Origin: a virus
Taxonomy: Duplodnaviria > Caudoviricetes
Reading direction: 5' to 3' (one strand)
DNA: 31,000 nucleotides
IMG/VR virus record: IMGVR_UViG_3300044477_000109
Location: 1 to 31,000 of that record
Under the pieces are notes generated by a model. It did not search any database. It was not told where the DNA came from and saw nothing but the letters and a program-made list of their open reading frames with translations. The position numbers and the translations under genes are program-made. This document shows positions 5,647 to 31,000 of the stretch, in pieces (the stretch's first letter is position 1; the number at the start of each line of letters is the position of its first letter).

Positions 5647-5667
5647 GCAGTAGCCTCCTTGAAAAAT

Positions 5668-5809
5668 TGGAAGCGGCGGGATTTGAACCCGTATGTCGTA
5701 CGGTCCCCCGGCATCCTGTCCTATCCGTACCGTCTAGACAGGTAGCCGCGATATCGTGCGCACTCCTCCGCTATTTGGGGCGAGGGGCACCATTCCCTCG
5801 TACGCTTCC
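5668..5809 (-). ncRNA. tRNA-like structured RNA with a large pseudoknotted insert
   Basis: 7-bp acceptor GGAAGCG/CGCTTCC+A; D-like arm CGAGGG-AATGGTGC-CCCTCG; T arm CGGG-TTCAAAT-CCCG; no canonical anticodon arm. Confidence 0.7.
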
Positions 5810-5815
5810 AATATT

Positions 5816-28626: not shown

Positions 28627-29099
28627 AATCCCTCCGTGTCGTGCGTGACTTTTATCTCTAGCGGCTTCCCGAGGTTAACGTCTATATCCTGCTTATCCCG
28701 CCACTTCTCGGGCCTGCGATTCTTTAGCCAGAATATCTGCGCGGTAACATCGGGCGGGCAATGCTCCTTGATCGGCACGCGCTCCCAGTGTGACCCCTCG
28801 TCCTTGCCATCGGATACCGTGACTATCTTCTCCGAGTCGAACGTATAGCCAGTCGCGCGAGTGAAAAGGCTTTTCTCTACCAGGTCGTCGGGGGCTTCCT
28901 TGCCCTCCTTTAGGGACTCGGAAAACTCTGGATGGACATGTTTCCATTCCTGGATAGTATCGATATGGATATCAAGCTTTTCGGCTATCTGGGCCTCGGT
29001 CATGCCACATCGGGCCATATATTCGACGGTTAGGCAGTATTCGGGCTTGTATTTTGTCGGCCTTCCTCCGGCATGCTTAGGCTTTGCTTCGTCGCTCAT
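28623..29099 (-). CDS. terS: Terminase small subunit
   Basis: GGRPTKYKPEY, an HTH, and PPDVTAQIFWLKNRRPEKWRDK. Confidence 0.88.
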   Translation of the reverse strand: MSDEAKPKHAGGRPTKYKPEYCLTVEYMARCGMTEAQIAEKLDIHIDTIQEWKHVHPEFSESLKEGKEAPDDLVEKSLFTRATGYTFDSEKIVTVSDGKDEGSHWERVPIKEHCPPDVTAQIFWLKNRRPEKWRDKQDIDVNLGKPLEIKVTHDTEGL

Positions 29100-29293
29100 G
29101 CTCTATCCTCTGGCTTCCGCCAATGCAGGGCGCAGGGCCTAGGCGGAATCGGGCTAGTCTTTATTGGGTGATATTCAACAGCCCCTCCGGGCATATTGCA
29201 AGCTAGTTTAAACTCTTCTAGCCATGCTTTTAATTCTCTGCGAGTCATTTGCCGATAATTTGGCGAAAGTGAACGAATCAAAGCCATGCTCAT
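29096..29293 (-). CDS. Hypothetical protein
   Basis: ATG at 29293 just after the rep stop; ATGA-coupled to terS. Confidence 0.55.
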   Translation of the reverse strand: MSMALIRSLSPNYRQMTRRELKAWLEEFKLACNMPGGAVEYHPIKTSPIPPRPCALHWRKPEDRA

Positions 29294-29297
29294 GTGA

Positions 29298-30338
29298 TTA
29301 TAATACCCCCGCTTCGTCTGTTTTGGCAAGGGCTGGAAGCGGCTCGGGCCTCAACCTGTTTCGCAATGCTTCAAGGCCAGCCGCGTAGTCTTCAGCGCTC
29401 ATGGCTTCTTCCGCAGATTCCGCGTTGTCTTGCGCGATCCTCTCGGGTGTAGTTGCGTCGGGCCGGTCGTCAAGGGCTCCGCCTCTCTCTGGCTTTTGCC
29501 ATGCGGGGGCCTTGATCCTAAACGTCCCGAAGGGGTTTGCCTCGCTGATGAACTTCTCGACGCCTCCCCGGATGAATCCCGCGAAGCTCTGATATGGCGA
29601 CTTTATTTCATGCTCAGGGCTCGCCTTGACTTGCTCGTAGTTTTCGATGGCTTGGAGAATATCCGCATCCGAGTATGCCGACATTATTCTCAAGCAATCG
29701 CTCCGATCCTCCTCTCGGAAGGTTAAGGCATTCAGGCGGCATGGAGGGCCTATCTGTGGGGCCTTGGCGTTCCAAAGGCTCCGGGCTAACTCGATCCTTG
29801 CGCAGCCGTCCCGAGCGTTCTCTGGATTTTGTTGCAATCTTGGCGGAATAAAAACAGGCTCTTCTTCTTCTTTTTTTGGTTGTGGAGATATTGATACTGG
29901 TGAAGATGAAGATGGAGATGGAGATGGAGATGGAGATGAAGAGTATTCAATCGGTATCGATTCCGTATGCCCGTCCGTATTACCACTGTTATACGCCGGT
30001 GTTACGTCCGTATTACTATCCTTATTCCACCGTTTATTAATGTTCGCCTTGGCTGAGTCCGATCTTGCCTTAGCCGCCTTTAATTCCTCATCGGCTCTTT
30101 TGTTTTTATAGTTGCCATCCTCGAGTATGAAAAAGGATTCAAGAATATTTTTAGTCATCTCGATATCGGCTCTGGCTACCATTGCAAGCCTTTTTACATC
30201 AGCGCCCATTTCTCCTTTTTTCTGCCAGTAGTGCATGAGTAAAAGGAAATACACCCCGTGTTCTTCGGCTGTTAGAGCCTGGGTATCGCGTAGATAGTCG
30301 CCGATATAAATCGGCATCCAAATGTCTACCTGAGCCAT
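29298..30338 (-). CDS. Replication initiator, DUF1376/YdaU family
   Basis: WMPIYIGDYLRDTQALTAEEHGVYFLLLMHYW N-terminus, NKRADEE and an SPSPSP linker. Confidence 0.88.
   Translation of the reverse strand: MAQVDIWMPIYIGDYLRDTQALTAEEHGVYFLLLMHYWQKKGEMGADVKRLAMVARADIEMTKNILESFFILEDGNYKNKRADEELKAAKARSDSAKANINKRWNKDSNTDVTPAYNSGNTDGHTESIPIEYSSSPSPSPSPSSSSPVSISPQPKKEEEEPVFIPPRLQQNPENARDGCARIELARSLWNAKAPQIGPPCRLNALTFREEDRSDCLRIMSAYSDADILQAIENYEQVKASPEHEIKSPYQSFAGFIRGGVEKFISEANPFGTFRIKAPAWQKPERGGALDDRPDATTPERIAQDNAESAEEAMSAEDYAAGLEALRNRLRPEPLPALAKTDEAGVL
29860..30030. other. Putative origin of replication inside the rep gene
   Basis: GTAT-core repeats at about 11-bp spacing, CGTCCGTATTAC twice, and an adjacent T-rich strand-biased tract. 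Confidence 0.6.
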
Positions 30339-30480
30339 GCTGTACGTCCTAAAAAGAAAAGCCGCCTACGATACGCCCCGGCAGGGGTTAGGAGTGTAGC
30401 GGCACTCCTCGTATCGTAAACGGCTCTTAGATTATGCCCCCGCTACGGCGCATTGTCGACTGTCTGCCGGTCAGTCAACG
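30339..30480 (-). ncRNA. Structured leader / attenuator of rep (C4/CI-like)
   Basis: Two 5' hairpins whose loops are complementary to two loops of a downstream three-way junction that ends in TTTTCTTTTT. Confidence 0.75.
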
Positions 30481-30485
30481 AGAGA

Positions 30486-30514
30486 ATTATATGCCTAAGC
30501 GTGCCTGCGGTCAA
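30486..30514 (-). promoter_or_regulatory. Promoter for rep
   Basis: TTGACC-17-TATAAT. Confidence 0.85.
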
Positions 30515-30533
30515 GCCAGCTCGCGAAGGCTGA

Positions 30534-30788
30534 TTATCCCCATGGGCTAGATCGCTTGCGTTGGATTTCCTGTGTAAGCTTCACGGCCCCGAAATCCCAT
30601 GCGTACTTGGTTTTATAGAAATCAGTCCCGTCGACATGGAGAACCATCGTTCGAGCGGCCGAGGTGCCGGGCTCTATACCGTGAACAGTTTTCAGGTGTT
30701 CAAGAGCCTGATCCTTCGACATTTCGGGGTACGGCTCGCCACATGTTTCGCAGTAGAAAACGTTGAACTCTTTATCGCCTTTTGACAT
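30534..30788 (-). CDS. C2H2-like zinc-finger protein
   Basis: CETC...EHLKTVH; GGAGG RBS. Confidence 0.7.
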   Translation of the reverse strand: MSKGDKEFNVFYCETCGEPYPEMSKDQALEHLKTVHGIEPGTSAARTMVLHVDGTDFYKTKYAWDFGAVKLTQEIQRKRSSPWG

Positions 30789-30996
30789 TTTGTCCCTCCA
30801 TCCAGTATTCTGCGACGTGTGCCCCGGATTGCACTTTGACGATGCGCTTCTCGATCTTGTAGCCCTTGCGCTTTAGGTCGTAGATCCTCGCCCCTAGCCG
30901 CATGGAGCCCACGCGAAGGAAAACCGTATAGGGTGTCAGCCTGTCGCCCCGGCGTAGCATCTCTAGGATGCGGGCCTCTTGCGTTGCGGTTGTCAT
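30772..30996 (-). CDS. Winged HTH protein (HTH_39-like)
   Basis: QEARILEMLRRGDRLT...RLGARIYDLKRKGYKI...VAEY. Confidence 0.8.
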   Translation of the reverse strand: MTTATQEARILEMLRRGDRLTPYTVFLRVGSMRLGARIYDLKRKGYKIEKRIVKVQSGAHVAEYWMEGQNVKRR

Positions 30997-31000
30997 GGTT
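30880..31000. repeat. Terminal direct repeat, right copy
   Basis: Identical to 1-121. Confidence 0.97.

Follow-up and report, generated by a model that had tools for sequence, protein, structure and literature searches.

The window analysed here, a stretch of 31,000 nucleotides, is a circular phage contig that is complete: The initial 121 nt recur at 30880-31000, and the record is assigned direct terminal repeats and 100% completeness. Most of the genes in the window are carried by the minus strand. One of them encodes a protein of 346 amino acids with an N-terminal DUF1376 domain and heads a same-strand run that continues into the terminase, portal, and capsid genes. To judge from its family annotation, this DUF1376/YdaU protein is probably the replication initiator. 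Two 21-nt direct repeats inside the gene are possibly iterons of an origin, a reading modelled on lambda O, where the iterons lie within the gene. A promoter-like site (TTGCCA-18-TATTAT, 29300-29329, minus strand) overlaps the end of the initiator gene and precedes the packaging genes; it may uncouple the late genes from the leader of the initiator gene. Two genes upstream of this leader, an HTH_39 protein is encoded that could be a regulator. The features of the gene and its leader are:

29298..30338, minus strand: DUF1376/YdaU gene, 346 aa (Pfam PF07120, E = 2.3e-19; PHROG 'primosomal protein', E = 7.9e-25)
29972..30025, no strand assigned: two 21-nt direct repeats inside the DUF1376 gene (repeat family D2, 81% identical)
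30486..30514, minus strand: outer promoter P1, TTGACC-17-TATAAT (11 of 12 consensus matches)
30455..30479, minus strand: hairpin 1, 8-bp stem and 9-nt loop with A (CCGGCAG, 30470-30464), from the lowest-energy fold
30434..30453, minus strand: hairpin 2, weak stem and 6-nt loop with B (GTAGCGG, 30446-30440), from the fold (-9.6 kcal/mol alone)
30431..30459, minus strand: predicted inner promoter P2, TCGACA-17-CATAAT, from a promoter scan
30410..30424, minus strand: S, the 5' strand of the 15-bp closing stem of a three-way junction, from the lowest-energy fold
30390..30409, minus strand: B' hairpin, 7-bp stem and 6-nt loop with B' (CCGCTAC, 30402-30396), from the folds
30376..30387, minus strand: A' hairpin, 4-bp stem and 4-nt loop, with A' (CTGCCGG, 30384-30378), from the folds
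30361..30375, minus strand: S', the 3' strand of the closing stem, from the lowest-energy fold
30351..30360, minus strand: U-run of the predicted intrinsic terminator, from the sequence
30338..30350, minus strand: ribosome-binding site (AGGA) and start codon, from the sequence

An earlier note on this DNA had described the leader as a two-state RNA switch, and our work bears out most of the anatomy on which this description was built. The two exact 7-nt complements A/A' and B/B' are present on the minus strand (starting at 30470 for A, 30446 for B, 30402 for B', and 30384 for A'), and so is the promoter TTGACC-17-TATAAT upstream of them (30514-30486), the predicted start of which, at about 30479, is the first base of hairpin 1. 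Among 20,000 dinucleotide shuffles, 25 had a 7-nt match in the A windows, 50 had one in the B windows, and none had both. The proposed succession of two hairpins and a three-way junction is recovered in the lowest-energy fold of 30480-30339, in which the junction closes on the U-run 30360-30351 by a stem that holds two U-G wobbles; the fold of the 161-nt region has a z-score of -4.23, and none of 200 shuffles was equally stable. The terminator does stand directly before the initiator gene: The U-run, located 22 nt upstream of the gene, is followed by the ribosome-binding site and the start codon, and the interval 30338..30350 has no space for a further promoter. A simple terminator scan omits this terminator, in keeping with the restriction of the scan to loops of 3-8 nt. 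The statement that all complementary segments lie in hairpin apices applies fully to A (7 of 7 nt unpaired in the fold) and nearly to B and B' (6 of 7 each), but not to A' (4 of 7), which spans the loop plus three bases of the 4-bp stem.

A second copy of the element was sought in the window, and none was found. A different RNA-like structure was observed at 5663-5810 (minus strand): Behind a promoter-like site (TTGACG-17-TAATAT) lies a putative tRNA-like RNA of about 148 nt with an acceptor-like stem, a D-like hairpin, a long irregular stem, and a T-arm (fold z = -3.0). For this stretch, ARAGORN reports nothing, Rfam returns only a match of the T-arm to tmRNA (8.2 bits), and in the fetched loci it is represented only by a 22-nt match to the T-arm. 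A close capsid relative (L475, about 560-920) has a non-coding stretch that follows a promoter-like site and ends in a U-run and a tRNA-like T-arm.

The leader belongs to a family. Starting from an initiator alignment with 21 relatives, 80 metagenome, 80 viral, and 48 genome loci were retrieved. Copies in L020, L024, L025, L084, and L087 were revealed by blastn and folding of upstream regions, and a structure script gave more. A covariance model built from 15 copies scored above 60 bits at 19 places, window included, in the first 100 sources and at none in 100 more distant loci. Our alignment contains 17 distinct full-length copies that are 41-78% identical; L092 and L093, as near-duplicates, and L020, as a truncated copy, were excluded, and one further copy (L599) was found later. 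Eleven of the 16 non-window copies had been picked by a script that demanded complementarities of at least 5 and at least 4 nt. Six copies were found without this filter: L024 by blastn, L084 and L087b by eye in folds, L019 by the model, L384 by a pattern and the model, and L599 by a loop-free pattern. Loose DNA patterns applied to viral contigs gave strong model matches for 1 of 120, 1 of 120, and 0 of 120 among the loci listed, so that the hits of these patterns are mostly chance; the match from the first of these patterns scores the same as L083 and is probably the same record. Moreover, two contigs of low depth in a wetland DNA run match the leader alone (7 differences over 30357-30472 and 11 over 30400-30469) and have unrelated flanks, a hint that the leader may be a mobile cassette. 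Among the sequencing runs, none from RNA was listed as containing the sequence.

The element is found at the head of replication operons. It stands directly before the DUF1376 gene in the window, L020/L024, L025, L084, and L087b, and one to three genes before it elsewhere. The first downstream gene encodes an ANT/KilAC protein in L005b, L006, L009, and L083, an AntA protein in L089a, a YopX protein in L019 and L087a, and another short protein in the remaining copies; in L384, the RNA precedes a different initiator-like gene and DnaB. Among 30 distinct initiator relatives of at least 55% identity, the fetched flank contains the RNA or a variant of it in 15; of the 22 with at least 1.5 kb upstream, 13 have it and nine do not. 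The RNA is present in phages of differing portal families, and three records (L005, L087, and L089) contain two copies with different loop codes. The DUF1376 relatives from the genome collection are distant and nearly all from Acidobacteriaceae, and none of these 48 loci has the RNA. No copy was seen in the capsid relatives G016 and G009, both of which are fragments, the fetched G016 stretch being one without a rep gene. In annotated phages, the terminase and the initiator have distant matches and the capsid has none; nucleotide searches of annotated phages and plasmids gave no match.

Several observations concern related arrangements. An ORF of about 55 codons, in most cases preceded by a promoter-like site, separates the RNA-gated gene from the initiator in L001, L003, L004, L005, L009, L012, L017, and L083 (HTH_17-like in L005); located just before the DUF1376 gene, it is a possible second control point. 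Four leaders are variants that keep the junction terminator: L031:800-932, L060:1215-1347, L016:1823-1956, and L116:about 2090-2230. In L031, L060, and L116, B is located in a single-stranded stretch directly 5' of the closing stem, and the inner TTGAC is missing in L016. Finally, junction terminators behind strong promoters were seen in the unrelated viral contigs L368 (about 1440-1537), L380, and L427. In L368, one upstream loop is complementary to one arm loop and the other arm has a GAAA loop, as in a single-kiss form.

The copies differ in their loop sequences and retain the pairings. In the 17 copies, 91% of the helix cells are paired and double-sided changes occur at 30 of 39 pairs, values taken from an alignment that was fitted to the proposed structure and hence leans towards it; none of 500 shuffles reached any of five measures of covariation, and slid controls were much lower. 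In the closing stem, pairing amounts to 99.4% and 96.6% for the two helices, and 13 of 17 pairs show double-sided changes; such changes affect six of six modelled pairs of the B' hairpin and four of four pairs of the A' hairpin. Hairpin 2 is the worst-aligned helix (64.7% of cells paired). For the S:S' duplex, the mean energy is -29.1 kcal/mol with the own partner versus -9.6 kcal/mol with swapped partners.

The compensatory changes that the earlier note had named as a check on double kissing were found, and they are copy-specific. The mean complementarity of A/A' is 6.29 nt for own and 3.64 nt for swapped partners, that of B/B' is 5.82 versus 3.40 nt, and in both cases none of 100,000 permutations reached the own value; the cross controls A/B' (p = 0.52) and B/A' (p = 0.27) are null. 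Three B/B' values of 4 stem from a narrow window and become 7, 7, and 6 (one G-U) in a wider one. The copies found without the complementarity filter (L024, L084, L087b, L019, L384, and L599) have A matches of 4, 6, 7, 6, 7, and 6 nt and B matches of 6, 7, 6, 6 (one G-U), 7, and 6 nt, respectively, those of L599 having been counted by eye. The weak case for A/A' is L024 with 4 nt (5 with a G-U pair), and L083, L087a, and L089a have exact matches of 5 nt. The linker from B to B' measures 33-40 nt in 16 of the 17 copies, and L019 (31 nt) was misassigned by the exact-match rule. There are 14 distinct A and 15 distinct B codes among the 17 copies. In the records with two copies, B matches its own partner over 6-7 nt and the partner in the other copy over 3-5 nt. 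For A, own versus cross matches are clearly separated in L005 (7 and 7 versus 4 and 4) but not in L087 (5 and 7 versus 6 and 3) and L089 (5 and 8 versus 4 and 7); thus, the orthogonality of cassettes rests mainly on B. Taken as comparative evidence from sequences, these data provide strong support for the two predicted loop-loop pairings.

The attenuators of pT181 and pIP501 use a dedicated antiterminator helix. The earlier note's alternative to double kissing, a classical switch between two folds, found no support: If A:A' and B:B' are forced into a nested fold, the window RNA reaches -29.2 instead of -64.4 kcal/mol, a cost of about 35 kcal/mol, and in all 17 copies the forced alternative is 15-44 kcal/mol worse than the terminator fold at equilibrium. 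Moreover, no upstream segment that is specifically complementary to the 3' strand of the terminator (S') was found across the family: Pairing with S' gives -9.5 kcal/mol (own) versus -8.8 kcal/mol (swapped) for hairpin 1 (p = 0.11) and -9.1 versus -9.0 kcal/mol for hairpin 2 (p = 0.45). A window-specific antiterminator, in which hairpin 2 pairs with the A' hairpin and the first part of S', appeared in prefix folds but was rejected as its pairing is not conserved. In prefix folding, S pairs with S' in most copies once about 7-13 nt of S' are exposed. Since the terminator fold is favoured at equilibrium, we can conclude that any ON state must be kinetic, i.e. a co-transcriptional kissing trap, the folds computed here being nested equilibrium structures. 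In all 17 copies, 6-7 T residues occupy the 8 nt 3' of the stem, and the next ATG follows 17-32 nt downstream of the stem. With a U-run and a start codon so close to it, expression of the gene requires read-through.

Within the leader, a second promoter-like site was identified that the earlier note had overlooked: TCGACA-17-CATAAT at 30459-30431. The 3' arm of hairpin 1 doubles as its -35 element, and hairpin 2 covers its spacer. In the 17 copies, four of the five columns of the TTGAC in this arm are invariant and the fifth is 88% conserved, and the paired columns of the 5' arm are 71-94% conserved and vary mostly by G-U wobble. The -35 element precedes the first non-U pair of the terminator stem by 33-37 nt (mean 34.7, sd 0.96), a fixed spacing that could also follow from the kissing geometry. 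A -10 element with A2 and T6 at a spacing of 16-18 nt is present in 15 of 17 copies, with a score of 5.53 as compared to 3.51 +/- 0.29 for shuffled linkers (0 of 20,000 reach it); the inner -10 is weak (scores of 3.5-4) in L009, L006, L087a, and L089b. Transcription from P2 is predicted to start at about 30425-30424, 6-7 nt past the -10 element and at the base of the terminator stem, just as P1 would start at the base of hairpin 1. P2 is thus predicted to yield the junction alone, without A and B, a molecule of 74 nt including the U-run (-41.7 kcal/mol). B of the variants L031 and L060 is just 5' of the stem, yet the predicted inner start is still downstream of it; the sequence in L060 is TTGCAT-17-TACAAT. 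As to P1, all 17 aligned copies have a promoter-like site, chosen as the best one in each copy, that ends 4-9 nt upstream of hairpin 1. The evidence for the nested promoter-like site, which is newly described here, is good at the level of sequence comparison.

The gene content of these phages is relevant to the function of the leader. No tyrosine integrase, serine recombinase, HTH_3, S24, or ParA-type domain was detected in the complete window genome, and this absence fits the repressor-free control proposed in the earlier note. The four records that are 97-100% complete (the window, G002, G005, and G011) are without tyrosine integrase, serine recombinase, ParA-type, and S24 domains; an HTH_3 match is above the cut-off in G011 only, weak in G002, and absent from the window and G005. 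With no integrase or ParA in the four genomes, a stable prophage state that would need immunity or copy control is not established. These four complete or near-complete genomes have antirepressor-like or lambda-O-like modules.

Our observations lead us to lean towards the idea that the leader is a self-antisense attenuator, in which kissing in cis would block closure of the terminator and a short RNA that binds A and B in trans would restore termination. (i) During transcription from P1, hairpins 1 and 2 would fold first, and the emerging B', and then A', would kiss B and A in cis. (ii) The kisses would turn S into a tethered ring and pin the root of S'; the 15-bp stem would thus be unable to wind as the polymerase crosses the U-run, resulting in read-through into the initiator operon. 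(iii) The predicted promoter P2 would yield a junction-only RNA of about 70 nt that lacks A and B, and would therefore always terminate and leave B' and A' free. (iv) Upon accumulation, the P2 RNA would occupy A and B in newly started P1 transcripts ahead of the synthesis of B' and A' in these molecules, and the terminator would close. The outcome would be a dose-dependent shut-off of the replication operon, and of incoming phage sharing the loop code. The earlier note had suggested that the terminated or processed leader gates the initiator gene. The part that concerns gating agrees with a terminator that adjoins the gene; the trans-acting RNA, however, more probably originates from the internal promoter than from processing.

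Other explanations have to be weighed against the self-antisense attenuator. The two pairings might simply throttle the operon in cis: Double kissing would set a fraction of read-through, fixed or pause-dependent, without any RNA acting in trans, and the terminated RNA would be a by-product. We regard this as fairly unlikely. Both targets and the terminator are indeed part of one cassette in every copy, a second A or B target is absent from the 90 nt 3' of the terminator (best match 2-5 nt in all 17 copies), and the architecture of the guanidine-IV riboswitch acts in cis (PMC7736828); but under a throttle, it is not obvious why the loop codes should have diversified (14 and 15 in 17 copies), why two copies in one record should differ in code, or why a -35/-10 pair should be placed to make the junction alone. 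A precursor in the manner of C4 or CI, from which RNase P or RNase III would cut the junction RNA as the trans repressor, seems to us quite unlikely; in this case, the P1 transcript would be the precursor, A and B would govern folding or processing, and TTGAC would be kept for a reason at the RNA level. The order of elements is that of phage P1 (a1, b1, and then b', a'). The c4-a1b1 motif consists of two tandem hairpins (PMC2864571), RNase P cuts C4 from a larger transcript (PMC5320573), and the long closing stem could be a nuclease substrate. However, the GGW start that represents the C4 cleavage motif (PMC5320573) is not conserved, the stem beginning with AGAG in most copies, there is no a2/b2 target downstream, and processing would not explain why TTGAC is conserved on one side at the -35 position with a -10 element at 16-18 nt.

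The polarity of the switch might also be the opposite: Kissing would stabilise or speed termination, or would mask the loops in the terminated RNA; read-through would be granted by an antitermination protein, from phage or host, with the ability to recognise the kissed structure. The terminator fold is by far the most stable one, and the HTH_39 protein and an unannotated protein of 84 amino acids are encoded just upstream. Against a protein that reads the loops stands their free variation; moreover, the B-B' kiss and the fully closed stem would, from geometry, compete for the linker of 33-40 nt, so that we deem this polarity improbable. Finally, the leader might have no role as RNA and consist of an ordinary terminator and inverted repeats acting at the DNA level, as an operator or a single-stranded DNA signal, with incidental loop matches. 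The arms of hairpin 1 do form an inverted repeat over a -35 element. Yet, the G-U-type substitutions in hairpin 1, the variable spacing of its arms (inner length 10-17 nt), and the copy-specific loop complementarity with null cross controls speak against this explanation; the complementarity largely refutes it, and we give it hardly any credence.

If the self-antisense attenuator holds true, the leader would be a compact natural attenuator. Its intrinsic terminator would be blocked by loop-loop contacts rather than by a competing helix and would itself, when transcribed from the promoter concealed in the leader, be the repressor RNA. This would explain how phages without an integrase or a CI-type repressor limit replication or exclude their kin. 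It is tempting to go further, even if we are rather more doubtful than convinced here, and to speculate that the leader is a protein-free feedback switch of about 160 bp, in which tandem promoters write the terminator twice: once with two keys, as topologically trapped read-through, and once without, as the repressor. Swappable codes of 6-7 nt might make the cassettes orthogonal, and phages that lack an integrase and a CI-type repressor might accumulate several independent switches, with the RNA code as the sole determinant of immunity or incompatibility groups. More than 12 natural code variants are available to study how kissing would block terminator closure. With consensus sigma-70-type promoters and no known protein needed, the cassette could in that case serve as a set of orthogonal transcription regulators.

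The leader is a real conserved RNA element that is absent from Rfam. It has no gathering-score match in the window, and the C4 models give no match in 30250-30600 (E <= 10) or in 18 relative loci (E <= 1). The covariance-model check against C4 and c4-2 envisaged in the earlier note was thus negative, and the leader is not a member of the C4 family. RF01695 was not matched in five phage records either (E <= 1). A match of the terminator to the SR6 antitoxin was dismissed as being at chance level (16.3 bits versus a cut-off of 55).

By analogy, the element would work like P4 CI and P1 C4, yet it has no downstream target and no match to their models. Elsewhere in the window, no second pair of A and B targets near a gene start was recognised with one mismatch allowed in each. 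The N15 CA RNA is similar to P4 CI. P4 CI, the precedent for termination forced by such an RNA ahead of replication genes, is described as a same-strand small RNA at the head of the operon leading to the replication genes that causes premature termination by short pairings (PMC4825925), and our leader resembles it as a same-strand RNA at the head of such an operon. Whereas CI is processed from the primary transcript and has targets on both sides (seqA upstream, seqC downstream), here the targets are upstream only, and the small RNA would be the terminator itself, predicted from an internal promoter. With the P1/P7 C4 (RF01695), c4-a1b1, and c4-2 RNAs, the leader shares a three-stem junction and two short recognition elements (PMC5320573, PMC8198154) complementary to upstream hairpins, the two tandem upstream hairpins (PMC2864571), and a position often ahead of antirepressor-family genes. 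Drawing the parallel to P1 C4 and P4 CI was apt, as the element precedes ANT/KilAC genes in four relatives and an AntA gene in one. Cleavage by RNase P releases C4, the b' element of which occludes a ribosome-binding site (PMC5320573); in contrast, both elements are here terminal hairpin loops on a U-run terminator, with no ribosome-binding site as target.

As to prior descriptions, none of the leader RNA was found in the literature, the c4-2 text of PMC5737381 and the alignments of PMC10690425 being outside this comparison. The entries of PMC10690425 include three candidate viral RNAs within 25 bp upstream of DUF1376/YdaU genes, DNAVirus_187, DNAVirus_230, and DNAVirus_4653. They are listed there with 49, 75, and 124 nt, a 'no' for the terminator, and mostly lake or marine origin; this sets them apart from our leader by description only, and an overlap is possible, above all with the RNA of 124 nt.

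In pT181 and pIP501, an RNA induces premature termination ahead of the rep gene (PMC5415839), and termination before a rep gene induced by RNA is what our leader would have in common with them. Their regulators are cis-encoded antisense RNAs from the opposite strand, whereas here the RNA is from the same strand, no plus-strand promoter-like site was found in 28960-30782, and there is no conserved antiterminator helix. In the guanidine-IV riboswitch, which provides a precedent for the ON state proposed here, pairing of a loop with the loop of the terminator hairpin permits transcription to continue; read-through was measured, and a steric mechanism was proposed by the authors (PMC7736828). As in guanidine-IV (GGAM-1) and Gd4v, a 5' hairpin loop would pair with the loop of a terminator hairpin, and strain in the linker has been proposed for these RNAs to prevent the outer terminator pairs (PMC7736828, PMC9788692). 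The riboswitch has one kiss and highly conserved ligand-binding nucleotides; our leader has no Rfam match and precedes phage rather than transporter genes, and it would combine two kisses, loop sequences that vary freely, and an inner promoter.
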